Shown piece after piece: positions 14,050 through 50,545 of a stretch of DNA of 64,000 nucleotides (its first letter is position 1; each line of letters begins with the position of its first letter). The position numbers and the translations under genes are program-made. This DNA comes from an uncultured Planctomycetales bacterium. Its GTDB lineage: Bacteria; Planctomycetota; MHYJ01; JACPRB01. The notes under the pieces were generated by a model, which saw nothing but the letters and a program-made list of their open reading frames with translations, did not search any database and was not told where the DNA came from. The stretch is from assembly GCA_964526305.1 (NCBI GenBank), contig CAZGKV010000005.1, forward strand, positions 41,546 through 105,545. The letters are read 5' to 3'.

Positions 14050-14059
14050 TTCGATTCTC

Positions 14060-26223: not shown

Positions 26224-28977
26224 CTACCGGCAGAGCTCTGCCAGCCTACGCTCCACGGAGGACCGCTCGCCCCATTCTCGGGGAGCGGAATCGAGGCAGA
26301 ATCGAAAATCCGCTGCGGCCGATTCGAGAAGGACGGGGGCCGCGGCCGGATCCATTTTGGAGAGATCGATGGAGAGGTTCGCTCGATCGAGTCTGGTCTC
26401 GAGAATCCGGGGGGCCAGCGCGATGGCCTGTCCATAGTTCTCCAGGGCCTGTCGCCAGGCGACCCGGGTCTGCTCGGGGTAGCCGTCTCGCGCAAGAAGG
26501 CTTCCGAACATTCGAAGGGTGTGGGCGCGGCCGATCCACGACAGTCGGTATCTCGGGTTGATGCGGATGGCCACCTCGTGGTCGCGCACCGCCGACGTCC
26601 ATTCTTCTGCGGACTCCTTGCGCCGTCCCGATGAGCCCAGACGGTCGGCCTTCGCGCGTCGGGCCCGGCCGCGCTGATTGTATCCGTCGGGATCTTGGGG
26701 ACGGAGGTGAACGACTCGATCCAGGTCGCGGATCGCCCCGTCGAAATCGCCGAGGGCAAGTCGAGCCTCCGCGCGCCACCGCCACGAGTCCGGAGCGTCG
26801 CTTTGGAGAGCGATGGCATGGGCGAAATCGCCCAGGGCGCCGAGCGCATCGCCGAGCGAGAGTCGAGCTTGCCCGCGGGTGAGACGGACCCCGGCTCCCA
26901 GAGGGCGGAATCGTTCCGTGGTGTCGATCAGGGAGAGCGCGTCCGCATGTCGGCCTTCGTATTGGAGAAGGGCCGCGCGGTTGCTCCAACTCTCGATGCG
27001 CGAGGGGTCGAGGGAGGAGGCCCGGGCGAAGTCGATCGCCGCCGCCGCCGCGGCCCCGTGCGAATAGAAGAGGGTCCCTCGATTGGTCCACGCCTCCGCG
27101 CGCCGAGGATCGAGCTCGATGGCACGGGAATAGTCACGGAAGGCTCCGGCCGCATCTCCATGCGCCTGCCGAACCGAGCCTCTATTCAAGTGAGCCCACA
27201 CATGACGAGGGTCATGATGGATGGCGTGCGACAGATGGCGGAGCGCCTGTTCGAAGTCGTAAAAGGCGCTTCCCTGGAGTCCGGTGACGTGTCCCCGAAG
27301 GAAATACAGTTCCGCTTGACGGGATCCCTCTCGCTCCGCTCGATCGCAAAGGCTCAAGACTCGCGCGAAGTTGCCTCGGATCCGCGCGACCTGCGCCTGG
27401 CCGAGGAGGGCGAAGGCGTGCAAGGAGTTGGACTCCTCCACCGCCTCGAACTCGCGCAGCGCGTCCGAGGGACGATGAAGGACCTCCAGAAGAATGCGGC
27501 CGCGAAGGTACCGGGCTTCGCCGAGCTTGCGGTCGAGACGAAGCGCCGCTTCATAGGCCGACAGGGCTTCTTCATATTCGCGGCGATTCTCGTGCAATCT
27601 GGCCTTGCGAAGCCAGGCATCCGAAGAGCCGGGATGGCGCCGGAGCCCTTCGTCCAGGAGTTCCAGAGCCTGCGCCCAATCGTTGGGCCGGTCCCGGAGC
27701 AATGCGAGTTTCGTTCGGATGGGACCGAAGACGGCCTCTTCCGCGGCCGTCGATTCTAGTCGGGTTCGATGAGCCGCAAGCTTGGACTCGCAGAGTTGGT
27801 ACAGGCGAGGATCGATGGAAATGCGCACGGCCGCGCGGTCCAGGAGCGTCTTGGCCTCCTCGTAGCGTCCCTCTTCTGCCCGGCGACGAGCTTCCGCCTC
27901 CCACGCCCGCGCTTCGCGGCGCTGGATCCCGTCATGAATGAGGAGAGCGCCCGAGGCGGCCAGGGCGGCAAGCGCGGCTCCCGCGAGGACTCCCCACCTG
28001 CGGACTACCGCTCGGCCGAGGCGCCGGACCGTCGAGGGCGGACTCGCCTGGATCGGTTCGCCGTCCAACCAGCGCGTCAGGTCTCCGGCCAGCGCGGCGG
28101 CGCCGGCGTATCGACTCGCGGGCCACTTCTCGAGACACTTCAGGATGATCGTTTCGAGATGGGCGTCCAGTCCGGGATTCCGTTTCCGAGGAGCGGGGGG
28201 CTCTTCCTGGACGATGCTGCGGAGCACCTCGAAGGCGTTCTCGGATCGGAAGGGAGGGCCTCCGCACAGGAGGTCGTAGAGGGTGGCTCCGAGGGCGTAG
28301 ACGTCGCTCCGAGGTCCGATGGCTCGAACCTGGCCGGTGGCTTGCTCCGGAGGCATGTACGAGGGAGTTCCGGCGACCAATCCCGTTCCCGTGACCGCAG
28401 GATCGAGAAGGGTGTGCTTCGCAAGCCCGAAGTCCATCACGAACACTCGAGGCCGGCCGTCCCGTTCCTCGACCATGATATTGTCCGGTTTGAGGTCGCG
28501 GTGAATCACGCCTTGTTCGTGAGCGTAGTGAACCGCCGACGCGGCTTCGCGTACCAGCGCGACGATCCGTCGAACGTCTCCCTTCGGGTGCCTCGCGAGC
28601 GTCTTCCCCTGGATGAGCTGCATCGCGATGAAGTGGCGGTCGTCGGTCTCTCCGACCTCGTACACCGCGGCGATGGCCGGATGGTTGAGGCGCGCCGCGG
28701 TCCGCGCCTCCCGGAGGAACCGCGCGAGCATGGCCGGGTCCTCGTTCCGCAGGAACTTGAGCGCCACCCATCGCCCTAGCGGCGTGTCCCACGCGCGCCA
28801 CACCTCTCCCATTCCCCCGCACCCGATCTTCGAGACCCGCACATATCCCCCGATCCGATTCGCGGGGATCTGCATCGCTTCGAGGACTTCCGATGGAACC
28901 GGCGGGGGGGAAGGCCGGGTGACCTCCCGTCCCAGGCGGAGCGCTTGTTCCGTGTTGGGTTGGAGTGCATCTTCCAT
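26224..28977 (-). CDS. Ser/Thr protein kinase with TM segment and TPR repeats
   Basis: GCGGMGEVW, HRDLKPDN, DFG, then multiple A..NRG TPR units. Confidence 0.92.
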   Translation of the reverse strand: MEDALQPNTEQALRLGREVTRPSPPPVPSEVLEAMQIPANRIGGYVRVSKIGCGGMGEVWRAWDTPLGRWVALKFLRNEDPAMLARFLREARTAARLNHPAIAAVYEVGETDDRHFIAMQLIQGKTLARHPKGDVRRIVALVREAASAVHYAHEQGVIHRDLKPDNIMVEERDGRPRVFVMDFGLAKHTLLDPAVTGTGLVAGTPSYMPPEQATGQVRAIGPRSDVYALGATLYDLLCGGPPFRSENAFEVLRSIVQEEPPAPRKRNPGLDAHLETIILKCLEKWPASRYAGAAALAGDLTRWLDGEPIQASPPSTVRRLGRAVVRRWGVLAGAALAALAASGALLIHDGIQRREARAWEAEARRRAEEGRYEEAKTLLDRAAVRISIDPRLYQLCESKLAAHRTRLESTAAEEAVFGPIRTKLALLRDRPNDWAQALELLDEGLRRHPGSSDAWLRKARLHENRREYEEALSAYEAALRLDRKLGEARYLRGRILLEVLHRPSDALREFEAVEESNSLHAFALLGQAQVARIRGNFARVLSLCDRAEREGSRQAELYFLRGHVTGLQGSAFYDFEQALRHLSHAIHHDPRHVWAHLNRGSVRQAHGDAAGAFRDYSRAIELDPRRAEAWTNRGTLFYSHGAAAAAAIDFARASSLDPSRIESWSNRAALLQYEGRHADALSLIDTTERFRPLGAGVRLTRGQARLSLGDALGALGDFAHAIALQSDAPDSWRWRAEARLALGDFDGAIRDLDRVVHLRPQDPDGYNQRGRARRAKADRLGSSGRRKESAEEWTSAVRDHEVAIRINPRYRLSWIGRAHTLRMFGSLLARDGYPEQTRVAWRQALENYGQAIALAPRILETRLDRANLSIDLSKMDPAAAPVLLESAAADFRFCLDSAPREWGERSSVERRLAELCR

Positions 28978-29033: not shown

Positions 29034-29240
29034 ATGAAGAAACCAGGAAGGGACGGAACGGAGCAAGGGCCTGGAGCGCGATGATCTGACGGGCAGAATC
29101 GTGGTCGAGCTCAGGACCGTGAAGGCACTCCACTTCGCCATCGGACGCCGGCATGGGCTTTGCCAAGCCGACGCTGGAGGGGAAGAGGGTTCTTGCCTCC
29201 GAGTGGCCGACACCGTGACGGCCGTTCCTGGTTTCCTCAT
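29034..29240 (+). pseudogene. Internally deleted GxxExxY-family gene remnant bounded by 16-bp inverted repeats
   Basis: ERDDLTGRIVVELRTVKAL and, in another frame, FAKPTLEGKRV resemble the start, VELK motif and end of GxxExxY proteins. ATGAAGAAACCAGGAA (29034-29049) versus TTCCTGGTTTCCTCAT (29225-29240) is 15/16 inverted. Confidence 0.55.
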
Positions 29241-29341
29241 AAGACCAGAGGTTGTTCCCCGTGCGTGGTATACCGCGAGGGTCGGCGAGGCCGGGTCGGA
29301 ATCCTGTTCCGCCCCGGCACGGTTTGGATTAGACTTCTCGC

Positions 29342-30679
29342 ATGCCCATCCCCAAACGCGAATCGACTCAGATCCTCTCCGCCCTCGCCGCGGGAGTCGT
29401 CCCGCGCGTAGGGCTCTCCCACGTCGCCGTCGGGCGCCTCCCCGAGATCGCGGCCCTGAAGCAGGACCTGGAGGCCGTCGGCGCAGGCGGCGCGGCGATG
29501 CGCTTCATCGTCGGGCGCTACGGGTGCGGGAAGAGCTTTCTGCTCCACCTCGTCCGCACCGTCGCCTTCGATCACAAGTTCGTGGTGGCCGACGCGGACT
29601 TCACGCCGGAGCGGAAGCTCTATGCGACCGACGGGCAAGCCGTCGGGATCTACCGCGAGCTCATGAAGAACCTCTCGACGAAGACGATGCCGACGGGAAA
29701 CGCGCTCCCGGCGATCCTCGAACGATGGATCTCGGACGTTCAGGCAACGCTCGCGACTACCGGACAGGCGCCGGAGCCCCAAGCCGTGGAGTCGAAGATC
29801 GTCGAGACCGCCAATGCCATGCACGAGCTGGTCCACGGGTACGACTTCGGCGTCGTCCTGCGGAGCTACTATCGCGGCTACCTCGAAGGCAAGGAGGAAC
29901 TTAAGCGGGAGGCCCTCCGGTGGCTGCGGGGGGAATTCTCGACCAAGACCGAGGCGCGCGAGAAGCTCGGCGTCCGCGTGATCGTGGACGACGACAACTA
30001 CTACGACTATCTCAAGGTGATGGGGCGCTTCGTCCACGACATCGGATACGCGGGGCTGCTCGTCAATCTCGACGAGGGCGTAAACCTCTACAAGATCACC
30101 CACGCGAACTCGCGGTCCCGGAACTACGAGAAAGTTCTCTCCATTCTCAATGACTGTCTCCAAGGCGGGGCGTCGCACCTCGGATTCCTGATGAGCGGAA
30201 CCCCGGAATTCCTCGAGGACACCCGCCGAGGGCTCTACAGCTACGAGGCGCTTCGGTCCCGCCTCTCGTCGAACCGGTTCGAGAAGGAGGGGATGCGCGA
30301 TCTCTCGGGCCCGGTGGTCCGGCTGACGACGCTGACGAACGAGGAGGTCTTCGTCCTCCTGACGAAGATCCGCGACGTCCACGTCCAGCACCACGGGACG
30401 CCGAAGCCGCTCGAGGATGCCGCGCTCCAGCGATTCATGGAGCTTTCCCTGCAGCGCCTGGGGGCGAAGGAATTCCAGACTCCGCGCGACGTGGTGCGCG
30501 ATTTCGTGAATCTCCTGAATCTGCTCCAGCAGTATCCGGACAAGAAGTGGGAGGATCTCCTGGGGCAGGTGCCGCCGGCCGCCCCTCCTACGTCGTCGGA
30601 AGCGAGCCCGGCACCGCCCGAAGAACCCGCGATTCCGGCCGCGGATCCGATGGAGCGCTTCAAGAACTTCCAAGTGTGA
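29342..30679 (+). CDS. DUF2791/BrxD-like P-loop ATPase (Shango SngB-like)
   Basis: LAAGVVPRVGL, GRYGCGKS Walker A, LLVNLDEG Walker B, GLYSYEALRSRL, TPRDVVRDF. Confidence 0.88.
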   Translation: MPIPKRESTQILSALAAGVVPRVGLSHVAVGRLPEIAALKQDLEAVGAGGAAMRFIVGRYGCGKSFLLHLVRTVAFDHKFVVADADFTPERKLYATDGQAVGIYRELMKNLSTKTMPTGNALPAILERWISDVQATLATTGQAPEPQAVESKIVETANAMHELVHGYDFGVVLRSYYRGYLEGKEELKREALRWLRGEFSTKTEAREKLGVRVIVDDDNYYDYLKVMGRFVHDIGYAGLLVNLDEGVNLYKITHANSRSRNYEKVLSILNDCLQGGASHLGFLMSGTPEFLEDTRRGLYSYEALRSRLSSNRFEKEGMRDLSGPVVRLTTLTNEEVFVLLTKIRDVHVQHHGTPKPLEDAALQRFMELSLQRLGAKEFQTPRDVVRDFVNLLNLLQQYPDKKWEDLLGQVPPAAPPTSSEASPAPPEEPAIPAADPMERFKNFQV

Positions 30680-30739
30680 TTTTGGGAATCTTCCGGCTTC
30701 TTCCGTCGTAGTATTAGACATCGATTTGGAGGGTGCGGA

Positions 30740-31228
30740 ATGCATGCGATGATGTTGGCGGCAGCGATGGCCGTCTCCGGGGCCCAGGCGCCCGCGGACG
30801 ACGAACCCACCTATACCGTCGTCGTTCAAGTCGACGGGATCTGAGGGCTTTCCTGAATCGAGGCCATTGCGAACGGCCTCGGATCCCTGGAAGGGGTCAA
30901 GGTGGACGCCGCGCACGACGGAAAGAAAAATCTGTTCAAGCTCTCGGTGAAGGAGAAGCAGGCGCTTACTCCGCTCAAGATTAAGGCCGCGGTGCCCGAG
31001 GGGTACGACTACAAGGGGGCCACGGTCACTATCACCGGAACAGTCTCGAAGGAAGGAGAGGAGTACTCCTTCAAGGCGCGGGGCTCCGGCCAAATCTTCA
31101 CGCTCAAGCCGAACGAGGCCGTGAAAAACGGCGCCGGCAAGGTATGGACGATCACGGGAAAGTGGTCGCAAGCCCAGGAGAAGAAGCCCGCGGTCATCGA
31201 GGTGACTTCGGCCAAAGAACCCAAGTAG
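30740..31228 (+). CDS. Exported HMA-like putative selenoprotein with two Sec (VDGI-U-GLS-U-IEAI), 162 aa
   Basis: GGAGG RBS, ATG 30740 and a signal peptide. In-frame TGA at 30842-30844 and 30854-30856 sit at the Cys positions of an HMA G-x-C-xxx-C loop. The frame continues into ORF-track 30902-31228. Confidence 0.75.
30857..30898 (+). promoter_or_regulatory. Candidate bacterial SECIS hairpin(s)
   Basis: cgaggcc/ggcctcg 7-bp stem (30859-30881) and a second gatccc/ggggtc stem (30882-30898) directly after the two UGAs. Confidence 0.55.
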
Positions 31229-36275: not shown

Positions 36276-36349
36276 CCGATGATATAGAAATAGCCAGGCT
36301 TCTTTTATATCATGATATAAAAGAAGCCTGGCTATTTCTATATCATCGG
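36276..36349. repeat. Perfect 74-bp spacerless palindrome, AT-rich
   Basis: 36276-36312 is the exact reverse complement of 36313-36349. Arms are 13/37 GC. Confidence 0.95.
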
Positions 36350-39300
36350 ACGGAAAGGCGGCTGGGACGAGAGGAGCCGCGCTGCTCCGGCGTGTAGTAC
36401 TCGTAGACGCTGGAAACGGGCACGGTCGCACGAAGGGGGAAGCGGGGACGGAGCGTGTATTCGAATTCGAACTGTCGGCCCTTGGCCACGCGGCCGAAGT
36501 AGAGCGCGATCTGGCGGCCGGCCAGGGTGTACTTGTCGATGGTCTTCTCGCGGACCATCTCCTCGAACGGCTCACGGTCGACGTCGAATCCCGGCGGGAT
36601 GCCGAGATCCACGATCACCATGAAGGTCCCCTCGCCATGGTAGGCCATCCGGGCTCGTGCCTTCAGCGGCTCGTTCCGTGCCATTTCGGTACGATCGTAT
36701 CGAACCTCAATTTCCAGGGGAGGTTGCGTCTCCGGCGGCACCCGGTCCCAGGGCAGATAGTACCGCCCCGTCACCTGTACGCTCGCCCGCAAGTCTCCGT
36801 CCGCGTCGATCTCGACTTGGTTTACGCCTGGGCCCGTAAGCGCCGTTACATCCACGGCTTGGGCGACATCGAAGTTCGTTCCGTCGATCGGCCGGAATCC
36901 CTCGCCGACCTCACGTCCGTTGACACGCAGGCGAAGAGCGACCCCCTTCGCGGGCGGTTTCGACTTGCCCGCCTCCAGGAGAGCCTTGAGCGCGAGAATG
37001 GTGGCCTGTGTCGACCCCCAGGCGCCGGTCGCGTCCTTGTCCCGGGCGATTGCGGACAAGCCTCCGTCCGCCACGGGAGAATCGCGGAGCGCCATCGTTG
37101 CCAAGGCCGTCGTCTCGACCCCGCCGGACTTTCCCCAGGAATAGAAAAGTCCTTGCCCGGGCATCGTCCACCGGGCCGCACCCTGCTCCCGCGTAGCCAT
37201 TCCCTCGAGCCGAGCCAGGATTCGCGGGTCGGGGTGGGCGTTGGCGATGAGAGCGAGCGCATATGGATCTTCCAGCTTTTCCCATCGCGATTGCAGGTAC
37301 GCGACCGCTCGGGCGTTCGGACGACCCGCCGCGCGGAGCGCCCAGGCCACGTACGCGGTTGTCGCGACCGGGTCCGACCCACTCCATCGTTTTTCGCCCG
37401 ACCAGGATCCGTCGGAATTCTGTCGCGACAGGAGAAGTCGTACCGCCCGATCGATGACGGCCGAATCCACGGGGTGGACCTTCGCCATATCGACGAACTC
37501 GAGAACACCGTACGCCGTGAGAACGGTGTTCGCCGGCGCCTTTCCGTACCAGTCGAACCCGCCCCCCGACACCTCGAAAGTAAGAAGCCGCTGGTATCCC
37601 TGGCTCAGCGCCTGCTCCAACTTCATCTGCCACTCGGGCGTCAACTGACGCGTCTCCTTGAGATAACCCATCACGAGTACGTTCGGATAGGTCACGCTCG
37701 TGGTTTGTTCGAATCAGCCGTAGGGCATCCGCACGAGCGCTTCGAGCCCGGTGACGATCTCCGAGAAGCTCGACGGATAGAGGCGCACCCAGGTGCGGTG
37801 CGCGCCTTCGATCGACTCGCGGGGAATCTCGACCTGGAGCCGCGAAGAGGTGCGAAGTCGATCTCCCGCGGCGAAGGGGAAGGCCTTGCCGTCGGGCATG
37901 ACCTCGAGGGTGCGCGCGACGCGATCCGCGAAGCTTGCCGCGGTGGCCAGGACCTCGAGCCGATGCGTCCCGAACTTCGCCGCGCGGATCCGATAGAGGA
38001 TCGAAGTCACGCGCTGCGGCTCGACTTCGACGGACTTCTCGGCCGGATCCAGAAGATCGATCCCCGCCTCCGCGGTAAAGCGAAGCGTCACGGTGTCGCG
38101 CTTGTCCGTAAAGTTGTACACCGCGACGGGAACCCAAAGCTCGTCCCCTTGCGTCAGCGAAACGGGCAGATCGAGATCTACGAAGAAGGGCTGGAAGACT
38201 TTGATGCCGTCCACCCCGCTCCCCAGCCGACCGTCGCGGGAAACCGCGCTCATCGTCATTCGCCAGGTGGTGATCGAGTCGGCGCCTCGGAACCGCACGC
38301 GAGCCCGGCCGTGTTCGTCCGTGAGGATTTCCGAGTTCCAATAGAGCGTTTCCGGGAACCACTCGCGCAGGCGCGGGGGATCGGACTTGGCGGGATCCGA
38401 CTTGGATCCCGTCGCGCCGCCTCCCCCCGTCGTTTCCGATCGCAAGGCCATGCCTTTGGGGTGTTGCGAGAACAAGGCGAAGAATCCTCCGCACAACAGA
38501 ATCCCGCACACGACTGCCTCGGCGACGATGCAACCGACCCGGCCACGGACGGCCTCGCGCACTGCGTACACGAACGTCCCGATCACGAGGACGAGGAAGA
38601 ACGCGATGCCGGCGATCGCTCCGGCGATTCGCGCCCGCTCGTTGTGTCGATTGATCCACCGGTTGATGGTGTCTTGCTTGTCCCCATGTCGGCAGCGCGC
38701 GACCGCACGGTTCTCCTCGGATTCCTGCGCCGCCGCGGCCCGGACTCGATCCGTCATCGGCGCTTTGAGCTGGTACCGCGGCTTCAGGAGGTCTTCGACG
38801 ATTCGGAAATAATCCCGCTCCAGCCCGGGCCGCGCCTCCGCAAGGGCGTAGACCGCCTCGTCCACGACTCCCAAGGTGATCGCCGAAACGACCGGCCGAC
38901 CCGTGGAGTCCAGGACTTCGAACTCGATGGAGATTTCCTCTCCGGGCCGGTACTCGCTCTTCGATAGCTTCGGCCGGATCTGAAGCTCCGTCGGAAGATC
39001 GACGATGACCACTCTCGAGTCGCGGACGATGTCGCCGTCCTCACGGATACGGTAGGCCGAAAGTCGCACGGTGCCGGTGAGTTCCGTCGGAAGATCGAGA
39101 GGAAGCACGCCCCGGCCGGCCCTGACCTCAAGCGTGCGGGTCAGGATCGTCTGGTCGTTTTTCACCAGGTCGACGAAAAGCGTGAGATCGCGCGCGGCAT
39201 ACGCCGTGACGGAGAGCGTCTCGCCGGCCCGGGCGGTGGGCTCAACCTGGAGAGCGAAATCCTTCGCCCCGAGTCGGCTGGAAGGGTGATACGTGAGAGA

Positions 39301-40698
39301 GGCACGCCGTCCGGCTCCGTCTTTCGCGTCGATCCGAACCGGATCGAGCCGTCGTCCGATCGCGACGACTCCGACTCCCGCGGAATCGGTCGCGACCGAC
39401 CCCCCCGGAGTGGTCAGCTCGCATCGGGCGGGCCGTCCGTCCGGATACGTCGTGATCACGAAGAGCGAATTGTCGATTCCGGCGACCACTTCTCCGAACA
39501 CCGGCACGACCTCGATTACGATCGGGTCCCGAGAGACGGGGATGCGGATCTTCTTCCGCTCGGTCTGCCCCGCTCCGTCCACCACCGTCGCTTCGAGCGG
39601 GACGTCCCCCTCGTGGGGCGTCAGACGCATCTCGAAAGTCCACCGCCCGTTCGAGTCGAGCCGTCCCGACAGCCGCTCCGGGCCGGAAAGCTCGACGCGG
39701 CCGTCGGCCACCGGCCGGGGAAAAAAGTACCGCGCCTCGACCGTCCCCCGAATCGTGTCGCCGGGCGCGTAGAAGGAAGAATCCGTCGTTACCGTCACGC
39801 CGAATTTCGGAAGGACATATCGACTCACCTCGACGGTGCGTTCGCTCTCGACGGCGGCGACGCGCGCCCGGATGCGCCATCGTCCGAGGATTACCTCGTC
39901 GGCCAGGCGGAAATCGACCGCGAAGATCCCGAAGTCGGAGGTCGTCCCTTCCTTCTTGTAGACCTTCGTTCCGTTCGGGTCCTCGATTTCGATGACGGCC
40001 GACGTCCGCGCGTACGGCTTCATCCGGAAATTGTCCATCGTGAGGGAGCGGATGTGGATCTCTTGCGTCGGCTGATACACGGGCTTGTCGGTGGTGAGGA
40101 GGATGCGGGCGGGTCGTTCGATGCGGATCGATCCGGTGAGCGTATCCGATGCCAGGGCGGAAGAGACTTCCACCGTGAGCGTCGCGGCGCCTTCCAGGTC
40201 GCTCGGAAGATCGAAAGCGAGCTCCGCGGAGCCGTTCGACGCGGTCTGGGCCGCCGGCGATTCCAGAACGCGCTCGCCGATTCGGACGCGCCCGCGAACG
40301 CTCGCGCCGGCGACGGGCCTCCCGCCGCGGTGATCCGAGACGAGGACGCGCGCCACGGTGCGCGTGCCCGAATGCCAGAGCGTCCCCGCGACGACGTGGA
40401 CCTCCTGCGGATCCGCCTCTTGGACATTGACCCAGACGAGGCCCGCCGTCATGGCGACGAGGACGAGCGCGGCCGCCACCGCCGGAATTCGCCACCACCG
40501 GCGGCGCCGAACGAGCACCGGCTTGGCGCCGGGGGGGGCGAATCGTCCCGCCGCCCGTTCCAGCTCCGCGTCGGCTCCTCGGAACTGTTCGAGACGGCTC
40601 CGGCACTTCGCGCACTCGGAGAGATGGCGCTCCATCTCCTCGCGGTCGGCGAGCTCGCCGTCCAGGTATAGGCTGAGCTTGAGGTCGTCGCAATCCAT
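36343..40698 (-). CDS. zf-HC2 anti-sigma/alpha-2-macroglobulin fusion with in-frame UGA at the thioester Cys (putative selenoprotein, 1451 aa)
   Basis: N-terminal HLSECAKC and TM helix, MG-domain motifs (TDKPVYQP, YVLPKF), FPETLYW, FQPFFVDLDLP. RMPYG-TGA(37716-37714)-FEQTTSVTYPN continues in frame into TED and receptor-domain sequence. Confidence 0.8.
37672..37702 (-). promoter_or_regulatory. Candidate bacterial SECIS hairpin for the macroglobulin UGA
   Basis: Starts 11 nt after the UGA: cacgag/ctcgtg (6 bp) plus cgt/acg (3 bp), with an 11-nt loop beginning with G 20 nt after the UGA. Confidence 0.55.
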
Positions 40699-40700
40699 CT

Positions 40701-41162
40701 TCACACCTTTCCCGAGATCATCGCGCGAACTCGGTGGAGTTTTTCGCCGACGGCGGTCACCGTCATTCCGAGAACTTCCGCAATCTGGGCGTACGGCATC
40801 CCGTCGACATATCGAAGAAGGAGAATCCGGCGGTAATCCTCCCGAAGACCGTCGACGAGCCGCATCACATGGGCGATGCGGTCGTCCGGTTCCTCGGGGC
40901 GGGGCGCGGCCAGGTCCATCGCGTGCTCCTCGATCGACACGGTAGCGCGGCGGGACCGGAGGACGTCGATCGCCGCGTTCCTCGTCAGCGTGTACAGCCA
41001 GGTTTTCCGATGGAGGACGCCGTCGACGGATTTCCACGCGCGGAGGAAAACCTCCTGCGTTAGGTCGTCGGCGGCGCTTTCGTCGCGGAGGTACGCCCGC
41101 GCGAGAGCGCGAACCATGCGTTCATGCTCGCGCACGAAGGCGTCGAAGTCCGCGCCGGTCAT
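40701..41162 (-). CDS. ECF sigma-70 factor, cognate of the macroglobulin-fused anti-sigma
   Basis: ADDLTQEVFLRAW, KTWLYTLTRNAAID, YAQIAEVLGMTVTAVGEKLHR. Stop lies 2 nt before the anti-sigma ATG. Confidence 0.88.
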   Translation of the reverse strand: MTGADFDAFVREHERMVRALARAYLRDESAADDLTQEVFLRAWKSVDGVLHRKTWLYTLTRNAAIDVLRSRRATVSIEEHAMDLAAPRPEEPDDRIAHVMRLVDGLREDYRRILLLRYVDGMPYAQIAEVLGMTVTAVGEKLHRVRAMISGKV

Positions 41163-41232: not shown

Positions 41233-43872
41233 TCAATCCGTCGGAAGGTCCGCCGCCAGACGTACTCCGATGTGCATGCTGGCGGTCCGGGGCGGGAAGG
41301 TGGCGCGGGAGGCCGATCTGCAGTAGCGGGAAGAGCTGCTCCACCCTCCGCCTTTCACCGCCCATACGGAGAAATCCTCCGAGCGGGTGTTGAGCCAATT
41401 GGCGATCACTCCCGCCATGTCCCGCACTCCGAACGGAGACTCGTCCGCGGGAAAGAGCCCGATGCGTTCCTGGACGCTCTTGCGCTCCAGGTATTCCATC
41501 GGGCGGGATCGTTCGGAGGCGGCGAACGCGAAATCGAACCGGTCCCCCCAGGGAAAACACCGCCCGTCCGCGCCACGGGCCGCCTTTTCCCATTCCTCCT
41601 CCGTCGGGAGTCGAAAGCGCCACCGGTTGTTCCGCTTTTGGGAATACCAGCGCGCATACGCAATCGCATCCTCGAGCGAGATCCCGACGAGCGGTTCATC
41701 GGGATTCCAGTAGAGAAGCGTGAACTTCTCCCCCTCCGTATTCCAAAACGTGCCTCCGTTGTCGAGTCGCGGCTGGCGCTTTCGCGCCTGCGCCGCCGTG
41801 TGCGCGGAGCGATCGTTGAGAAAGTCCAGATACTCGCCGGCCGTTACGGAGAATCGAGCGAGGAAGAAGGAGCCGACAGTCCGGGGGCGGCGCTCGCCCG
41901 GACCTTCGAGTCCTTCTGCCTCCGGATCGCTCCCCGCGATCGTCGCTCCTTCCGGGACGTAGACGAATCCCGCCGGGATGGCGTCCCCCGGGAGGAGCGC
42001 GATCTCGGCGCGGACCGGTCGATCGGGTTCCAGGAGGACGGGGAAACGAGCCTGGGCGAACCCCGCCTTCTCGAAGAGGACCAGATACGAACCCGGCGGG
42101 AGCGACAAGGGGAAGGAGACCTCGTTTTGTTCTCCGGTGTGGAGCCGGTAGGCGCTCCCGTCACGCGCGCTCTTCTTGGCCTCCTCGGGCGAGTCGAAGG
42201 GGAGCGCATCGACTCGAGGGAGGTCGACCTCGCGGGTTCTTCCCTTGGAGTCGCAGGGCAGCGGATGGAGTCGGACGTTTCTCTCTTCGTACCGGAAAAG
42301 CCATGCGCGGGCCCCGGCGGGACGCGTGAGGAGAGTGAGGGACACTCGAACCTCGAACCGAGCCCGATGTTCGGGACCGCCATAGTGCAAAACCTTCTTC
42401 TGCCACCACTCGGCTTCGGCGCGATTCCGGCCCGCGACCGCGCGCTCGTAGCGGGAGAGATAGAGATCCGCCAGAAGGGTGCGGGCCTCGAGGATTCCCG
42501 GATCGAAGGCGAGCGCCGTGAGGGCGGAGAGTTCGGACTCCTGCTCTCGGGCCGCGGCTTCGCGCCGAAGGACGTCGATCCGCGCCTCCAGCTTCCACAC
42601 CTGTTCCTTTTCCGAAGCGGGGGTGGAAGAGGTCAGCGAAGGTTTCCGGATGGACGAAAGCTCGGCGAGGAGTCGGTCTCGGGAGACCAAGGCTTCTCGC
42701 GCCCGGATCATCTCCTGGGCGATTCGGGCGCCCCGTTCGGCCGCCGTCCGATCGGGATCCAATCGTCGGGTCTCGGTGTAGCACTCCAGCGCGCGACTCC
42801 AGCGCCCGTCTCGGGCGGCACGGTCTCCCTCGGCGAGCCAACGGCGGGCGGCCGCCTCACGCCCGGCGGAACGGTAGGAGGAAACACCGCCCGTGCCTGC
42901 GGCGAAAACCGTCGCGGCCAGGAGAAGCGTGGTCCAGACCTTGTGCCGGCGCACGAAGCGCCCGAGTCGGCGAAGCACCCCGATGGGTCGCGCGAGAATG
43001 GAGGCGCCGTCGAGGAACCGGCGCAGGTCGTCGGCGAACGCCTTGGCCGTCGAATAACGGTTCGTGGGCCTCTTCTCCAGCGCCTTGAGGACGACGTTCT
43101 GGAGATCTCTCGGAACCGCGGGATTGAAGCGGCGGAGGGGCGCGACTTCTCGCGCCCGAACCCGGTCGAGAATGACGACGGGATTCGGTCCTTCGAAGGG
43201 GGCCTGCCCGGTGAGGAGTTGGTAGAGCGTCGCGCCGAGGGAGTAGACGTCGCTCCGGGCGTCGCAGTGTTCCCCGCTCGCCTGCTCCGGAGACATGTAG
43301 GCGGGAGTCCCAATGATCACGCCCTGGCTCGTGATCGTGGTTCCCCTCTCCGCCACGCGGGCGAGACCGAAGTCCATGACCCACACGTGGCCGTTGCGGT
43401 CGAGCATCAAGTTGAGCGGAGTCAGGTCGCGGTGGACGATTCCCTTATCGTGCGCGTAGTGAACGGCGTCCGCGGCGTCCCGGACCACCTCGACGGCCCT
43501 CCGGAGCGGCAATCGCAGCTCGTGCAGCGATTTCCCGTCGACGAACTCCATCGCGATGAAGGGCTTCCCCTCGATCTCGCCGACTTCGTGGATGGGGACG
43601 AGGTGCGGATGGCTGAGCTGCGCCGCGAGTTGTGCCTCGCGCATGAAACGCTTGGCGTCCTCCGGATGGGGAGAGTTCAGGAATTTCAGCGCGACGATGC
43701 GGTTGAGCTTGAGATCGCGCGCCCGATAGACGATCCCCATCCCGCCCCGCCCGAGGAGTTCGAGGTCTCCGTACCGCGCGGGCGAGGGAACGGAGGCGGA
43801 TCGCTCGCGCTCGTGCTCGAGGAGGCCCTCGACCACTCGGTCGAGCGAGGGTTCAAGCTTCGAATAGCTCAT
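41233..43872 (-). CDS. Ser/Thr kinase - TM - TPR-like - FGE/SUMF1 (C-type lectin fold) domain protein
   Basis: GRGGMGIVY, HRDLTPLN, DFG. C-terminal RLPTEEEWEKAARGADGRCFPWG, SPFGVRDMAG. Confidence 0.9.
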   Translation of the reverse strand: MSYSKLEPSLDRVVEGLLEHERERSASVPSPARYGDLELLGRGGMGIVYRARDLKLNRIVALKFLNSPHPEDAKRFMREAQLAAQLSHPHLVPIHEVGEIEGKPFIAMEFVDGKSLHELRLPLRRAVEVVRDAADAVHYAHDKGIVHRDLTPLNLMLDRNGHVWVMDFGLARVAERGTTITSQGVIIGTPAYMSPEQASGEHCDARSDVYSLGATLYQLLTGQAPFEGPNPVVILDRVRAREVAPLRRFNPAVPRDLQNVVLKALEKRPTNRYSTAKAFADDLRRFLDGASILARPIGVLRRLGRFVRRHKVWTTLLLAATVFAAGTGGVSSYRSAGREAAARRWLAEGDRAARDGRWSRALECYTETRRLDPDRTAAERGARIAQEMIRAREALVSRDRLLAELSSIRKPSLTSSTPASEKEQVWKLEARIDVLRREAAAREQESELSALTALAFDPGILEARTLLADLYLSRYERAVAGRNRAEAEWWQKKVLHYGGPEHRARFEVRVSLTLLTRPAGARAWLFRYEERNVRLHPLPCDSKGRTREVDLPRVDALPFDSPEEAKKSARDGSAYRLHTGEQNEVSFPLSLPPGSYLVLFEKAGFAQARFPVLLEPDRPVRAEIALLPGDAIPAGFVYVPEGATIAGSDPEAEGLEGPGERRPRTVGSFFLARFSVTAGEYLDFLNDRSAHTAAQARKRQPRLDNGGTFWNTEGEKFTLLYWNPDEPLVGISLEDAIAYARWYSQKRNNRWRFRLPTEEEWEKAARGADGRCFPWGDRFDFAFAASERSRPMEYLERKSVQERIGLFPADESPFGVRDMAGVIANWLNTRSEDFSVWAVKGGGWSSSSRYCRSASRATFPPRTASMHIGVRLAADLPTD

Positions 43873-44781: not shown

Positions 44782-47361
44782 CTATTCCGGCGGCAGCGAG
44801 GCTGCGAGGCGAATGCCGATCGATCCGAGATTGGTCTTCTTGTTGTAGTAGTTCCGAAGGGTCGCTCGGGCATAGTGCGGGGAAAGGCTCCAAACTCCCC
44901 CGCGAGCCATCCCTAGCGACCGTACGTTTTCCACGGGAGAGCACCAATTGGCCATGACGCCGGCCATGTCTCGAACCCGGAAGGGAGATTCGTCCGCGGG
45001 AAATAGCCCGCCCGAGTCCGCGAAGCGCTTCGCTCCCCCCTCGGGCCGCGAGTGTTCGGTGGAGGATAAGGCTGGATCGTAGCGGTTTCCCCAGGGGTAA
45101 AACCTTCCGTCGGCTCCCCGCGCGGCCTTTTCCCATTCATCCTCGGTCGGAAGTCGAAAAACCCAGCGACCCCCGCCCCGAGTCTTCGTGTACCACTTCG
45201 CATACGCCTCGGCGTCTTCGTACGTGACCCACGATACGGCGGCGTCCGGTCGGAAAAGTCGGGAGTACTCGAAGCGACCGTTCAGTTCGATCCAGGTGGG
45301 TTTCTCATCCGAGAACCGTGGGACGTGCCGCCGGGCTTCCTCGAGTCCTAGATCCTGAAGAAAGAGCGCGTAGTCCGCGCAGGTGACCGAATACTGATCG
45401 AGGATGAATCCCGGAACCCACGTGCGCATCTCGTCGCGCCCGCGAGGCATGGCGTCCTTCATCGGATCCCCACCGAGGATGCACGGCCCCTCGGGTATGT
45501 AGAGGAAGCCCCGGGGCATCTCGGATGCGGGCAGGAGCCGGACCTCCATTTCGATCGGACTCGCGACTCCGACCCAAAGCGGAATCCGCATGTCCGCGAA
45601 GCCCTCGCGTCGCAAGAGGACCAAATAGGAACCGGGCATGAGGCGGACCGGGAATAGGATCTCGTTGAATGCGTCCGTCGCAAGAGGATAGGCGCTTCGA
45701 GTCCGGTGGGCGAGTCTCTCCTCCTCCGAAGCCGTCAGAGCCAGGGCATCGACGGAGGGAAGGTGACCTCGCCGAGTACGGCCATCCTCCGCGCACGGCT
45801 CCGGGATCATCCGAAGATGGTGGAGCACGTACCGGTAGAGAAACGCCCGTGTCCCTTCGGAGCGGGTGCGGAGCTCGACCTTGGAGACGGCACGATTCCG
45901 AAACTCCCCTTTCCCGTCTTCGAGGCCTCGTCGAAGCCAGTCGTCCAGTCCTTGGGTGTCGCGAGTCTCCCACGCTTCGACGGATCGGGCCAGATCGGCT
46001 TGGATGAGGATGTCGCGGGCCGCGCGCGAATTGGGATCGAAGGCCAAAGCCTCCCGTGCTGCGTGCATGGCCTCGTCCTCCTCTTCGCGTGCCCGGCGCT
46101 TCAAGTCGTGGAGTTCCTGCTCCCGGCCCCATCGAGCTTCCTTGGCGGAAGCCAGGGCGGAGAGTTCTACGGCGATCGGAGCGAGGGAGGCCGCTCGACG
46201 GCGGGCCTGTTGTGCGCGATCGAGAGCCTTGGCGGCGCGTCCAAGCGCCTCCGAGGTTTTTCGGCGGGCCAGGATCGAAGAGTCCTCGGGCGCGAGCCGC
46301 TCGGCCTGAGTGAAAAACTGGGCGGCTCGATCCCATTCGCCTCGCCGAATCTCGGCTTCCCCCGATTCCACCAGAGCCTTCCGTCGCGCGTGCTGGAGGA
46401 ACGATCGCACCGTGAGGGTGCCGGCCACCGCGGTCGCAGCAGCCAGCGCCACCCCGATGCCGACGGCGGACGCCCGGTGGTGCCGGATCCATCGAGCCAT
46501 CCTACGCGCGGGTCCCGGAGGCCGTGCCGTAATGCTCTGATCCTGAAGGTAGCGGGTCAGATCGTCGGCGAACTCCTGGGCCGTCGGATAGCGGCGGGCG
46601 GGCTCCTTCTCGAGCGCCTTGAGGCAGATCGTCTCGAGATCCGGCGAGATCGTAGCGTCCAGGAGCCGGGGAGCCCTGGGATCCGATTCCGTGATCTTCG
46701 CGAACACCTCCATCGGGGTCTTTCCGAGGTGCGGAGCTCGCCCCGTGATCATCTCGTAGAGAATGGCTCCGAGCGCATATACGTCGGTCCGAGGAGTGAT
46801 TTCATGAGCCCGGCCATGGATCTGCTCGGGCGCCATATAGAGGGGCGTACCGAGGGTCGATCCCGACCGCGTCAGGGCGACATCGGTATCGACGAGGTGC
46901 GCCAGTCCGAAGTCGGCGATCTTCGGATCGCCGTCGGCGGTCACCAAGATGTTCTGCGGTTTGAGATCCCGATGGACGATCCCGTGCTGGTGCGCGTAGG
47001 CGACGCCTCGGGCGATTCGTTCCAGCATCCAAAGGCGGCGTTCGAGAGAGGGCCTCCGGAGTTCGAGGTGGCGATCCAGGGGTTCTCCCTCGACCAGCTC
47101 CATCACGATGTAGGGACGGCCCCCGGATTCGCCCACGTCGTACACCGGAACCAGGGCGGGATGGGTCAGCTTCGCGGCGACCTCCGCCTCGCGGCGAAAC
47201 CTCTGGACGGAGGAGATATGGGGATCGAAGTCGTCCCGAAGGACCTTGAGCGCGACCGTGCGATTGAGCTCTCGATCGAAAGCGCGGTAGACTACGGCCA
47301 TCCCACCGCGGCCGAGTTCTTCGGCGCGCTCGTATCGACCTTGTCCGGGATGGTCGGTCAT
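44782..47361 (-). CDS. Ser/Thr kinase - TM - FGE/SUMF1 domain protein
   Basis: GRGGMAVVY, HRDLKPQN, DFG, RLPTEDEWEKAARGADGRFYPWG. Confidence 0.9.
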   Translation of the reverse strand: MTDHPGQGRYERAEELGRGGMAVVYRAFDRELNRTVALKVLRDDFDPHISSVQRFRREAEVAAKLTHPALVPVYDVGESGGRPYIVMELVEGEPLDRHLELRRPSLERRLWMLERIARGVAYAHQHGIVHRDLKPQNILVTADGDPKIADFGLAHLVDTDVALTRSGSTLGTPLYMAPEQIHGRAHEITPRTDVYALGAILYEMITGRAPHLGKTPMEVFAKITESDPRAPRLLDATISPDLETICLKALEKEPARRYPTAQEFADDLTRYLQDQSITARPPGPARRMARWIRHHRASAVGIGVALAAATAVAGTLTVRSFLQHARRKALVESGEAEIRRGEWDRAAQFFTQAERLAPEDSSILARRKTSEALGRAAKALDRAQQARRRAASLAPIAVELSALASAKEARWGREQELHDLKRRAREEEDEAMHAAREALAFDPNSRAARDILIQADLARSVEAWETRDTQGLDDWLRRGLEDGKGEFRNRAVSKVELRTRSEGTRAFLYRYVLHHLRMIPEPCAEDGRTRRGHLPSVDALALTASEEERLAHRTRSAYPLATDAFNEILFPVRLMPGSYLVLLRREGFADMRIPLWVGVASPIEMEVRLLPASEMPRGFLYIPEGPCILGGDPMKDAMPRGRDEMRTWVPGFILDQYSVTCADYALFLQDLGLEEARRHVPRFSDEKPTWIELNGRFEYSRLFRPDAAVSWVTYEDAEAYAKWYTKTRGGGRWVFRLPTEDEWEKAARGADGRFYPWGNRYDPALSSTEHSRPEGGAKRFADSGGLFPADESPFRVRDMAGVMANWCSPVENVRSLGMARGGVWSLSPHYARATLRNYYNKKTNLGSIGIRLAASLPPE

Positions 47362-47890: not shown

Positions 47891-50545
47891 CTAATCGCGA
47901 GGGAGCGAAGCGACGAGTCGGAAACCGTCGGAGAGGGTGGCGCTCGACGCTAGGGCTTGGCATGCGTAGGTAGCTCGGGCGGCATTCGGGAGCGAATTGA
48001 AGCTGCCCCCCAGAAGAATCGGCTGCGTTCGGCCCTCCTCTATCCAGGCTCCCCAATTGCCGACGACGCCCGCCATATCGCGGACGCCGAAAGGGGATTC
48101 GTCGGCGGGAAAGAGGCCGATCGGTTCCGCGAACTCTGCATCGTCGGTTTTCGGCCGCGAGTTCTGGGTGCGGGATAGGATGGAATCATAGCGATTCCCC
48201 CAAGGGAAAACCCTCCCGTCCGCGCCGCGGGCGGTCCTTTCCCACTCATTTCGGGTGGGCAAGCGGAAGGTCCAAGATCCGGGGTGGGTCTTCGTATACC
48301 ACCGGGCATACTCCCGAGCGTCCTCAAAGCTGATCCCTCCCACGGCATCGTCGGGACGAGACATGCGGAAAACCTTGTCCCGTTCCCAGTGGCCCTTGGG
48401 CGCGAGCCATAAGGGTCGCCCGATGGCCGTTCTGGGACCGCGACGGAATGCCTCCTCGAAGGTGTGATGCGCGCGGTCCTCGAGGAAATCGAAGTACTCG
48501 GCGCAGGTCACGGAGAAGCGGCCGACGATAAACCCGCCGACCGTGGCCCGCGACTCCTCGCGATAGTTGAGAACGGCGTCGCCGATAGGATCTCCTCCCA
48601 GGATACAGGGACCCTCCGAAACGTAGACGAAACCTGAAGGCAGAGCCGCCTGCTCCGGGAGACGTACGTCGAGGACGATGCTTCCTCCGGTTCCGATCCA
48701 GAGGGGAAGTCGTGTTTCAACAAGACCCTTTTTCTGGAAGACGAGCAGGTATGACCCCGGCAAGAGGGAGAGGGGGAATCGGACCTCATTGAACGAAGTC
48801 GATGGAAGCGGATACGCTTTTCCGGCGCGGCACGCGGCTTTGGCGGCTTCGTCCGCGTTCACGGGTAAGGGATCGATCTCCGGGAAAACCGCCTCGAGCG
48901 TGGAGCCATTGGAATCGCAGGGAAGCGGAAGCAGTCGGAACTGTCGCTCGAGATATCGGAACAGGAAGGCTTGGGCGCCTTCCGGCCGGGTTCGGATGTC
49001 CACTTCGGTGCGGACCCGTCTTCCGAACTCGTCCGAACCCACCGCCAGGCCTCGGCGGAGATTGTCCTCCATGCCCGGGTGATCCCGAACATGGAAGGCG
49101 TCCGCGCACCGGTCGGCAAGGATGTTCACCAAGATCTCTCGGGCCGGGCGGAGAGAGGATTCCAAGGCCAGCGCTTCTTGTGCATTCTGCATCGCGGTTT
49201 CCTCGTGCTCGCGCGCTTCTCGCCGCGCTTCCTCGATCTGCGCGCGGGCCGACCACCTCTCCCGTTTCGTGGCGGCGGATTCGCCCTGGATTTCGCGAGT
49301 CACCGTCGTCGAGGCCGCTCGATTCCGCGCTTGGGAACGGCGATTCATCGAGGGGGTCGCGCGCGCCATGGCTTCCGATGCTCGCTTTCGTGTCCGAGTC
49401 TCCGGAGCCAAGCGCTCGACTTGGGAATAGAGCTCGGCGGCTCGGGACCACCGCTCCTCGTGCATGGCTTGGTCCGCCAGGGCGCGAAGACCGAGTATTC
49501 TCTTCGACCTCACGTGGGATTGAATGGCCAGAGTCGTCCCCAATGCGGCGCATCCCACGATGGCGACGGCGAGACCGGCCGCGAGCGCCTTGTGCCGGCG
49601 GATCCATTGCCCCATTCTCCGGAGGGGCCCTGGACGGCGGGCGAAAATGGGGCGGTCCTCCAGAAACCGGCGCAGGTCGTCGGCGAACTCGCGGGCCGTC
49701 GGATACCGGCGTGCCGGGCTCCTCTCCAGGGCTTTCAAACAAATAGTCTCGAGGTCGACCGGAATGGAGGACGAGACCTTGCGCGGCGCCATGGGGTCCG
49801 AATCGGTGATTCGAGCGAAGATCGCGGCGGGCGTGTCGCCGCGATGCGGGGGAGAGCCCGTGAGCATCTCGTAGAGAATCGCGCCGAGCGCATAAACGTC
49901 CGTCCGCGGCGAAATGTCGGTCGGCTTCCCGCGCACCTGCTCCGGGGCCATGTAGAGCGGTGTTCCCACCGCCGTGCCGGTGCGAGTGAGGGTCACGTCG
50001 GTGTCCGTGAGATGCGCCAACCCGAAATCGGTAACCTTGGGTTCCCCGCCGGGCGTCACCAGGATGTTCTGAGGCTTGAGATCGCGATGGATGACGCCGT
50101 GGTCGTGGGCGAAGGCGACTCCCCGCGCGACCCGCTCTAGGAGGATCACCAAGGCCGTCCGGCTCGGCTTCCCCTCCTTTTGATGTCGATCGAGAGAGAC
50201 CCCTTCCACGAGTTCCATCACGATGAAGGGGCGAGCGTCTTCGTCGCCGATGTCGTACACCCCCACCAACGACGGATGTGTGAGTTTCGCGGCCACCTCC
50301 GCCTCGCGGCGGAACCGTTGGAGAGTGGAGGCGGAGAGCTCCGTATCCTCCCGCAAGACCTTCAAGGCCACGGGCCGATTCAGCTCCCGATCATGGCCCC
50401 GATACACCACCGCCATCCCCCCTCGGCCGATTTCTTGGAGGCGTTCATATCGGCCGGGTTGAGCTTCCGAGTGTCGGTCCCTCTCGTGCGCCCGAAGGCC
50501 GTCGAAGAATCGCCCGACCCCGGACTCACTCTCGGAGGAGTTCAT
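47891..50545 (-). CDS. Ser/Thr kinase - TM - FGE/SUMF1 domain protein
   Basis: GRGGMAVVY, HRDLKPQN, DFG, RLPTRNEWERTARGADGRVFPWG. Confidence 0.9.
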   Translation of the reverse strand: MNSSESESGVGRFFDGLRAHERDRHSEAQPGRYERLQEIGRGGMAVVYRGHDRELNRPVALKVLREDTELSASTLQRFRREAEVAAKLTHPSLVGVYDIGDEDARPFIVMELVEGVSLDRHQKEGKPSRTALVILLERVARGVAFAHDHGVIHRDLKPQNILVTPGGEPKVTDFGLAHLTDTDVTLTRTGTAVGTPLYMAPEQVRGKPTDISPRTDVYALGAILYEMLTGSPPHRGDTPAAIFARITDSDPMAPRKVSSSIPVDLETICLKALERSPARRYPTAREFADDLRRFLEDRPIFARRPGPLRRMGQWIRRHKALAAGLAVAIVGCAALGTTLAIQSHVRSKRILGLRALADQAMHEERWSRAAELYSQVERLAPETRTRKRASEAMARATPSMNRRSQARNRAASTTVTREIQGESAATKRERWSARAQIEEARREAREHEETAMQNAQEALALESSLRPAREILVNILADRCADAFHVRDHPGMEDNLRRGLAVGSDEFGRRVRTEVDIRTRPEGAQAFLFRYLERQFRLLPLPCDSNGSTLEAVFPEIDPLPVNADEAAKAACRAGKAYPLPSTSFNEVRFPLSLLPGSYLLVFQKKGLVETRLPLWIGTGGSIVLDVRLPEQAALPSGFVYVSEGPCILGGDPIGDAVLNYREESRATVGGFIVGRFSVTCAEYFDFLEDRAHHTFEEAFRRGPRTAIGRPLWLAPKGHWERDKVFRMSRPDDAVGGISFEDAREYARWYTKTHPGSWTFRLPTRNEWERTARGADGRVFPWGNRYDSILSRTQNSRPKTDDAEFAEPIGLFPADESPFGVRDMAGVVGNWGAWIEEGRTQPILLGGSFNSLPNAARATYACQALASSATLSDGFRLVASLPRD

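Follow-up and report, generated by a model that had tools for sequence, protein, structure and literature searches.

What is the role of a TGA triplet that stands where an alpha-2-macroglobulin (A2M) gene should have the codon for its thioester cysteine? The question is raised by a 64,000-nucleotide stretch of DNA from an uncultured Planctomycetales bacterium (contig CAZGKV010000005.1, positions 41,546 to 105,545; the whole stretch is called the window here), which carries such a gene on its minus strand. In A2M and complement C3 the Cys and Gln of the CxEQ motif form an internal thioester, which is shielded until the bait region is cleaved and then acylates nucleophiles of the protease. We hold with good confidence that the gene in the window, at 36343-40698, encodes one A2M-family selenoprotein of 1451 residues in which the thioester Cys of the G-C-x-E-Q motif is replaced by selenocysteine (Sec, U) at position 995, and which would act by the mechanism proposed below. 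Judged by their DNA, well over a hundred relatives from several phyla have the same UGA, so that the group looks like an undescribed selenoprotein family. Insertion of Sec at the UGA is very probable. A stored selenoester at this site is predicted with more reserve, as the somewhat favoured outcome, and signalling from a protease to a sigma factor is possible but doubtful.

The UGA codon and its conservation among relatives

Minus-strand positions 37731-37696 read atg ccc tac ggc TGA ttc gaa caa acc acg agc gtg. The TGA occupies 37716-37714, and the letters are those on which the initial annotation had based its reading M-P-Y-G-U-F-E-Q-T-T-S-V. The two adjoining open reading frames (ORFs), 37714-41037 and 36343-37695, share one frame and have this TGA as the sole stop between them, in agreement with the earlier description of two halves parted only by this codon. 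From ATG 40698, read-through gives a product of 1451 aa with U at residue 995, while termination at the UGA would give 994 aa, the length that had been estimated for a truncated product (about 994 aa). This putative start (MDCDD...) corresponds to the MNCDD N-termini of orthologues and is preceded by AAAGG 8 nt upstream; the upstream gene stops 2 nt before the ATG. The gene and its central features are as follows.

36343-40698, minus strand: zf-HC2 anti-sigma / alpha-2-macroglobulin fusion gene, 1451 codons including one in-frame UGA, with a TGA stop at 36343-36345
37714-37716, minus strand: UGA, predicted selenocysteine, residue 995, at the thioester-Cys position (MPYG-U-FEQ), placed by alignment with human A2M; homologues have only TGA or TGY here
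37705-37707, minus strand: CAA for Gln998, predicted acyl partner in the U-x-E-Q motif, placed by the reading frame; FEQ is kept in the TGA loci
36976-37755, minus strand: thioester domain (TED), residues 982-1241, spanning the UGA (PF07678, E=7.7e-34)
36376-36624, minus strand: A2M receptor-binding (MG8) domain, residues 1359-1441, downstream of the UGA (PF07677, E=1.1e-10)

A search of solved structures aligns LVRMPYG[U]FEQTT of the window protein with LLQMPYGCGEQNM of human A2M (7von, MPYGCGEQ), so the TGA corresponds to the thioester Cys codon. The G, E and Q of the G-C-x-E-Q motif are present and aligned; the Cys codon is a UGA, which is a Cys analogue only if it is read as Sec. Pfam recognizes zf-HC2, MG2, MG3, A2M_BRD, A2M, TED_complement and A2M_recep in the read-through protein. 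The macroglobulin, bait-region and A2M domains stand in canonical order and above the curated cut-offs (PF01835, E=4.3e-20; PF17791; PF07703, E=3.7e-10; PF00207, E=6.4e-20). No NCBIfam model matches the read-through protein.

The TGA could be a nonsense mutation, a sequencing error or the mark of a pseudogene, in which case it would end translation and the 3' part of the gene would decay. A single TGY-to-TGA change would look alike in a single sequence, a caveat already expressed in the initial annotation, and public gene calls cut the gene in two everywhere (e.g. HYY18_01465, 'hypothetical protein'). Comparison with relatives speaks to this directly. In a protein search without a requirement for TGA, 23 of the 120 best matches end exactly at [LM]P[YFH]G and most others carry GC[FGAM]EQ. 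It had been proposed earlier to tabulate TGA against TGC and TGT in relatives. GTDB was scanned with one genome per species and a profile built on the 220 residues that precede the site; among the best 80 loci the codon is TGC in 43, TGT in 21 and TGA in 16, and TAA or TAG in none. F-E-Q-[ST] follows in frame in all 16 TGA loci, which belong to Planctomycetota, Brocadiia, Anaerolineae and other Chloroflexota, and one metagenome-assembled genome (MAG) of Bacillota.

HMMER was run exhaustively against 1.84 billion cluster representatives (50% identity) and gave 1575 matches at E<=1e-30. The best 150 representatives include 144 new sequences, 65 of which end at PxG and 79 of which have Cys, with no other residue at the site; because the profile was built from Sec forms, this proportion is enriched for Sec forms. 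A DNA pattern that includes the TGA found at least 119 further metagenome contigs, and all 101 unique matches listed have the context of an A2M TED with the frame open on both sides. The DNA of seven orthologue loci derived from protein matches has TGA followed by FEQ, and F-E-Q follows the TGA in 24 of 24 TGA loci that were retrieved without a TGA-requiring pattern. Two independent assemblies, made from different sequencing runs, agree on the TGA (L002, L003). The initial annotation had considered that the TGA might be unique to its assembly, and its presence in GTDB loci, cluster representatives and metagenome contigs disposes of that possibility. Two contigs each carry two TGA-type A2M genes (L133, with matches at 3003 and 7810, and ORJL010229494.1, which holds both L109 and L131), so some genomes hold paralogous copies.

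The sequence downstream of the TGA gives a similar picture. In five orthologues the read-through ORFs, of 1389-1493 codons, hold a single in-frame stop each. Conservation downstream of the TGA equals or exceeds that upstream of it; for L002, aa identity is 64% downstream vs 57% upstream and dN is 0.29 vs 0.37, with dS saturated, so that dN/dS ratios are rough. Relaxed selection on the 3' half, which had been named as a sign that would speak against a selenoprotein, was thus not found, nor were further stops. In a neighbour-joining tree the Planctomycetota-type forms, including that of the window, make up one monophyletic all-TGA clade whose members range down to about 40% aa identity (about 40-60%), and the Chloroflexota TGA forms are interleaved with Cys forms. 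Sec/Cys exchange in selenoprotein families usually leaves such an interleaved pattern, which would be consistent with exchange here. A mutation, an error or a decaying gene does not account for a TGA at the same codon in 16 of 80 species genomes, 65 of 144 representatives and at least 119 contigs with never a TAA or TAG, for an all-TGA clade of such depth, or for a constrained 3' half. The comparative data rule this explanation out, and we give it practically no weight. The comparison shows what appears to be a sense codon, a UGA kept at the exact thioester-Cys position in many lineages with Cys as the sole alternative.

The genetic code itself is not altered. TGA terminates 7 of the 17 confident genes of the window, among them selB and the A2M-type gene itself, and the code is therefore the standard one. 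No further credible in-frame TGA was found in the window, since every candidate is antisense to confident genes.

Hairpins downstream of the UGA and the Sec machinery

In bacteria, insertion of Sec depends on SelB together with a hairpin immediately 3' of the UGA, and the consensus of this selenocysteine insertion sequence (SECIS) in bacteria, bSECIS, has a loop of 3-9 nt, a stem of 4-16 bp, a G in the first two loop positions, a distance of 16-37 nt from the UGA and a minimum free energy (MFE) of <= -7.5 kcal/mol (PMC13188914). The elements of the window that bear on this are listed here.

37663-37695, minus strand: candidate SECIS of the window clade, a 13-bp hairpin with stem 37695-37683 paired to 37676-37674 and 37672-37663, bulged U 37673 and loop ACGUAC 37682-37677
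37672-37702, minus strand: hairpin pointed out in the initial annotation, starting 11 nt after the TGA; present, neither favoured nor conserved
3-626, plus strand: 3' end of selB, last 207 codons, with SECIS-binding winged-helix domains (SelB-wing_3, E=3.7e-19; SelB-wing_2, E=3.8e-9)

Predicted hairpins specific to the TGA forms stand 3' of the codon. With the U of the UGA numbered 0, the main type has a stem 14-19/23-28 of 6-7 bp, often extended by 13-29, and a loop G20-G21-Y22 that lies 17 nt after the UGA. It occurs in 89 of 117 unique TGA sequences and in none of 64 Cys homologues. GC content is equal between these two sets, and the mean downstream MFE is -12.6 kcal/mol for TGA vs -8.6 kcal/mol for Cys sequences (P ~1e-10). 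Synonymous sites in the stem hardly vary in TGA forms and are free to vary in Cys forms: at +24 Thr is encoded by ACG in 100/117 TGA vs 17/64 Cys sequences, and at +18 Ser is encoded by TCG in 101/117 vs 35/64. Columns 14 and 28 covary, with U-A in 79 sequences and G-U in 11, and G-U is found wherever Phe replaces Tyr. The AGU form of this hairpin (7 bp, GGU loop, 17 nt spacing, -8.3 kcal/mol) agrees with bSECIS in all four respects, that is in loop and stem size, loop G, spacing and energy. A longer pairing in the Chloroflexota-type sequences, 12-21/30-40, was rejected because pairing is lost at free synonymous sites (27% and 54% paired).

The main-type stem is absent from the clade of the window. 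Here a different hairpin was found, which in UGA numbering pairs 21-33 with 40-42 and 44-53 and has a bulged U43 and a loop ACGUNC. Its MFE is -20.2 kcal/mol (z = -2.16) and its loop lies 31 nt from the UGA. Across 12 clade members 96.8% of cells are paired, two compensatory double changes are seen (C-G to U-A and G-C to C-G), and none of 500 shuffles reaches its pairing or covariation score. RNAalifold on the window clade returns the same structure. Two members of the family, L205 and L206, hold a 7-bp stem at the same place despite differing amino acids (VAWPNVAIHAY vs VTYPNVLVMGY). In loop and stem size (6-nt loop, 13-bp stem), spacing (31 nt) and energy the window-clade hairpin agrees with bSECIS.

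The hairpin on which the initial annotation had relied does exist, 11 nt after the TGA, with a 9-bp stem and a G first in the loop. We rejected it as a functional element: it is out-competed by the overlapping 13-bp hairpin (pair probability ~0 vs 0.96-1.0; -9.4 kcal/mol vs -15.3 for the core of the competitor and -20.2 kcal/mol for the whole MFE structure) and it is unconserved, with 70% of cells pairing, no better than in shuffles. A third hairpin, CACGU/ACGUG inside GAGCU/CGCUC with -18 to -22 kcal/mol, is seen in the subgroup FEQTSS[FIC]TYPNVLALDYLRR (for example L085, L113, L143, L169, L191 and L197). RNAalifold over all TGA sequences, or over two crude groups, gave no useful consensus because several non-homologous hairpins are pooled; analysis clade by clade succeeded. 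The SECIS structure has apparently turned over repeatedly within this one protein family.

These hairpins also bear on the idea of a truly split system, in which an N-half (anti-sigma, MG1-7, CUB) ends at Gly994 and translation begins anew inside the gene, for instance at GTG 37695, to give a C-half (TED, MG8), with neither Sec nor thioester. In many loci gene callers let a gene begin at a GTG or ATG 18 nt beyond the TGA, and A2M homologues that lack the thioester exist (MagD/YfaS type). However, a split system gives no reason why the cut should always fall at the Cys codon, always as TGA and always with F-E-Q kept in frame, and it would sever the first TED helix. It also leaves without explanation a hairpin that lies at the expected SECIS place and is missing from the Cys forms, and the presence of SelB. 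We regard such an arrangement as very improbable.

The initial annotation placed selB in the window. This holds for its 3' end, 207 codons at 3-626, while the remainder of the gene lies outside: the stretch corresponds to positions 529-580 of 581 of TIGR00475, and the gene extends past the left edge of the window. A regular expression for the SelB GTPase motif had no match in the window because only the C-terminal winged-helix part is included. Sec use is further indicated, as far as its sequence tells, in the organism of one orthologue (L206), where a neighbouring AhpC/Prx gene at 2976-3428 (minus strand) is split by a TGA at the codon of the peroxidatic Cys (FYPKDDTGG*TRQ). Peroxiredoxins in which U takes the place of the peroxidatic Cys are among the known selenoproteins (PMC13188914, Table 1).

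With the codon read through, the amino acid inserted could in principle be one other than Sec, either through hairpin-stimulated insertion of Trp or Cys or through a Cys-tRNA(Sec), giving an ordinary thioester or none. Downstream hairpins can promote read-through generally, and the Sec machinery is seen in part, as the 3' end of selB. Against this explanation, selenoprotein families are classically recognized by frequent alternation of Sec and Cys at a single catalytic site, the main hairpin fits bSECIS in spacing (17 nt), loop (GGY) and energy (-8.3 kcal/mol), a known selenoprotein type adjoins one orthologue, and Trp would be unable to make the bond that the conserved E-Q context implies. 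Recoding to an amino acid other than Sec is therefore improbable in our view. The conserved TGA with Cys as its sole alternative, the constrained 3' half, the TGA-specific hairpins and selB together bear out the core of the initial annotation, an A2M-family protein whose thioester Cys codon would be a Sec-UGA.

Predicted selenoester chemistry and sigma-factor control

If Sec is inserted, the following mechanism can be considered. SelB and Sec-tRNA(Sec) would decode the UGA, guided by the hairpin at 37663-37695. In the folded TED the selenolate would attack the side-chain amide of Gln998, giving an internal Sec-Gln selenoester. The region of the C3-type catalytic His falls in an alignment gap with human A2M, where this position is Asn, and direct aminolysis, as in A2M, would therefore be the more likely reaction. 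The selenoester at Sec995-Gln998 would be a better acyl donor to amines than a thioester and so a faster trap; in peptide ligation, selenoesters speed acyl transfer by orders of magnitude (PMC8883728). The selenoester is predicted on the grounds that the U-F-E-Q motif is invariant and the fold of the TED intact.

Sec could also be inserted with no selenoester formed, or with none that lasts. The residue would then serve as a redox or metal-binding switch, or the ester would be a brief intermediate, hydrolysed to Glu. Redox functions account for nearly all known selenoproteins (PMC13188914), a selenoester is less stable than a thioester, and the pocket residues are alike in Sec and Cys forms. 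On the other hand, no redox partner of the CxxU/UxxC type is found beside the UGA site, and the invariant U-F-E-Q, the complete TED and MG8 and the free interchange with Cys forms in the same clades suggest that Sec does the job of the thioester Cys. Sec without a stored selenoester is thus unlikely, and the internal Sec-Gln bond remains the chemistry that we favour, to the degree stated at the outset.

How the reactive bond might be controlled is suggested by the N-terminal part of the protein, its membrane segments and the gene upstream.

40600-40680, minus strand: N-terminal zf-HC2 (ZAS-type anti-sigma) motif, residues 7-33 (PF13490, 25 bits vs a cut-off of 22.2)
40426-40494, minus strand: predicted transmembrane helix 1, residues 69-91 (hydropathy scan)
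38470-38628, minus strand: two predicted transmembrane helices, residues 691-713 and 722-743, at the bait position (hydropathy scan)
40701-41162, minus strand: ECF (extracytoplasmic function) sigma factor gene, with its stop 2 nt before the A2M start (Sigma70_r2, Sigma70_r4_2, TIGR02937)

The zf-HC2 motif is found in orthologues too, some of which are named 'anti-sigma factor RsiW' by JGI. The window protein begins with this motif and has no signal peptide, and an N-terminal lipoprotein signal was not found in it. The segment between the bait-region domain and FPETW consists of two predicted transmembrane helices and flexible linkers; a short Arg-rich loop separates the helices, and a Gly/Ser/Pro linker, residues 744-777, follows them. 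The alignment with human A2M covers residues 705-1431 and picks up again at A2M residue 705 (VRKYFPETWIW), which we take to be the C-terminal end of the bait region. Cys and Sec relatives (P0004-P0120) are alike in having 2 or 6-8 transmembrane-like segments at the bait position, just before FPETxxW. A membrane-embedded bait is not part of the textbook picture of A2M. From these features we infer a topology in which the anti-sigma domain is cytoplasmic, MG1-6 lie outside, a membrane hairpin follows, and the linker, MG7, CUB, TED and MG8 are again outside.

Gene calls for L001, L002, L004 and L204-L207 include a sigma gene immediately upstream, and tblastn finds an upstream sigma match in 12 of the 24 TGA loci; the arrangement is also seen in L005, L019, L048 and L069. 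This suggests that the zf-HC2/A2M protein is an anti-sigma factor whose sensor is an entire A2M. The protein would sit in the cytoplasmic membrane with its zf-HC2 domain in the cytoplasm, bound to the co-encoded ECF sigma factor, and with the macroglobulin domains, TED and MG8 outside. The two-helix membrane hairpin and the flexible linkers would take the position of the bait. An extracytoplasmic protease that cuts a linker near the membrane hairpin would cause the selenoester to be exposed and would be trapped covalently. More speculatively, the same cut could set off breakdown of the anti-sigma part, with release of the sigma factor; we put this protease-to-sigma step forward as a possibility only. 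The predicted ECF anti-sigma role and the predicted transmembrane hairpin at the bait position are additions to the first reading of the locus.

Several observations weigh against the scheme as a whole or against parts of it. In the loop of the window-clade hairpin the G (with U next) is the third base, not the first or second, so that the match to the bSECIS consensus is incomplete. The TGA family has at least three non-homologous hairpin types, and no single SECIS model fits them. selA, selD and tRNA-Sec were not found within the 64-kb window, where tRNA and Rfam scans gave nothing, and tRNA-Sec was not found in the flanks of 60 related loci, a result that is uninformative because selC need not be linked. 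No residues tell Sec from Cys forms apart from codons inside the hairpin, so the pocket shows no sign of having adapted to selenium. Selenium insertion and the selenoester are both deduced from sequence. The evidence for the sigma-release step consists solely of domain architecture and gene order, and that step is speculative.

Neighbouring genes and comparison with known systems

The remainder of the window contains further genes of note. Three neighbouring paralogous genes at 41233-43872, 44782-47361 and 47891-50545 (all minus strand) combine a Ser/Thr protein kinase domain with a C-terminal FGE-sulfatase domain (formylglycine-generating-enzyme-like), and more kinase genes lie at 26224-28977 and 59299-61143. 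A 491-aa ORF at 61606-63081 (minus strand) has a weak partial match to the ribosome-inactivating protein family PF00161 (E=1.8e-5, 25 residues), which is just above the cut-off and may be spurious. Long ORFs with no Pfam match at E<=1e-4 are found at 12184-14049 (minus), 29237-31171 (minus), 54517-56316 (plus) and 60467-61663 (minus). The region 12184-14103 is probably coding, judged by the GC content of third codon positions (GC3), and the ORF at 29333-30679 (plus), on the opposite strand of 29237-31171, has the top GC3 in the window (0.86).

The initial annotation knew of no described selenoester-type thioester protein, and the literature that we searched agrees. Neither A2M, MG2, TED nor a thioester protein is entered in a 2026 review table of 119 prokaryotic selenoprotein families, and the relevant Pfam accessions are absent from it. 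The deep-Sep paper with its supplements, the BSepDB paper and the Haft 2022 preprint contain no A2M or thioester selenoprotein. Open-access full text yielded no relevant paper that joins selenocysteine with macroglobulin, thioester-containing protein or selenoester, none in which anti-sigma factors are connected with A2M, and no proposal of a biological selenoester other than that for SELENOK.

In view of the above, we tentatively propose that the window protein could be the first natural stored protein selenoester, a Sec-Gln bond that would act as a faster covalent trap with Sec as leaving group rather than redox center, combined with a protease-sensing ECF anti-sigma factor; for this combined claim our confidence falls somewhat short of even. 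If true, Sec would gain a new chemical role, as a selenoester at a site known solely for the formation of an internal acyl bond. Chemists already use selenoesters, in which acyl transfer is far quicker than in thioesters. A large and widespread family would join the prokaryotic selenoproteins, with at least 65 clusters at 50% identity from Chloroflexota, Planctomycetota and a Bacillota MAG. The natural Sec/Cys pairs could show how the reactivity of the bond tunes trapping in thioester proteins, and the fusion to an ECF anti-sigma domain together with the transmembrane helices at the bait position suggests an unrecognised form of bacterial sensing of extracellular proteases.

Among known systems, the eukaryote-type proteins A2M, CD109 and TEP1 give the best solved-structure matches (human A2M, E=2.4e-38; CD109, E=1.6e-36; TEP1, E=7e-29). 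They share with the window protein the order of MG2, MG3, bait-region, A2M, TED and receptor domains and the motif MPYG-x-(G/F)EQ. The window protein differs from them in having a UGA for Cys, an anti-sigma N-terminus with a transmembrane helix, and two helices at the bait position. The bacterial ECAM/YfhM type of E. coli and Salmonella is also homologous (E about 1e-8 to 1e-10), but the match is far weaker than that to human A2M (1e-38). A2M proteins of this type are located in the envelope, bear a thioester and are thought to trap proteases, and ECAM is a lipoprotein with a CLEQ thioester. Compared with them, the window protein has an anti-sigma N-terminus, internal transmembrane helices, an adjacent ECF sigma gene and, by our prediction, Sec. 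The ZAS (zf-HC2) anti-sigma factors RsiW and RslA resemble it in their N-terminal zf-HC2 domain, single transmembrane helix, extracytoplasmic sensor and co-oriented ECF sigma gene upstream; in the window protein, however, the sensor is a complete A2M of ~1350 residues with a reactive-bond domain.

With selenoprotein families such as Prx and formate dehydrogenase the window protein shares a single UGA at the place of the catalytic Cys, interleaved Cys orthologues, a downstream hairpin and SelB. In these families Sec has a redox function, whereas the Sec predicted for A2M would be the partner in an acyl bond and its leaving group. A biological selenol ester has been proposed for the SELENOK-assisted palmitoylation by DHHC6, in which acyl transfer onto Sec is discussed as a possibility (PMC5789314). 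That case is eukaryotic, intermolecular, transient and unproven, whereas the A2M case would be a stable intramolecular Sec-Gln warhead. The Sec decoding proposed here is thus of the ordinary bacterial kind, and fold and motif are those of A2M, CD109 and TEP; it is the combination that is new.

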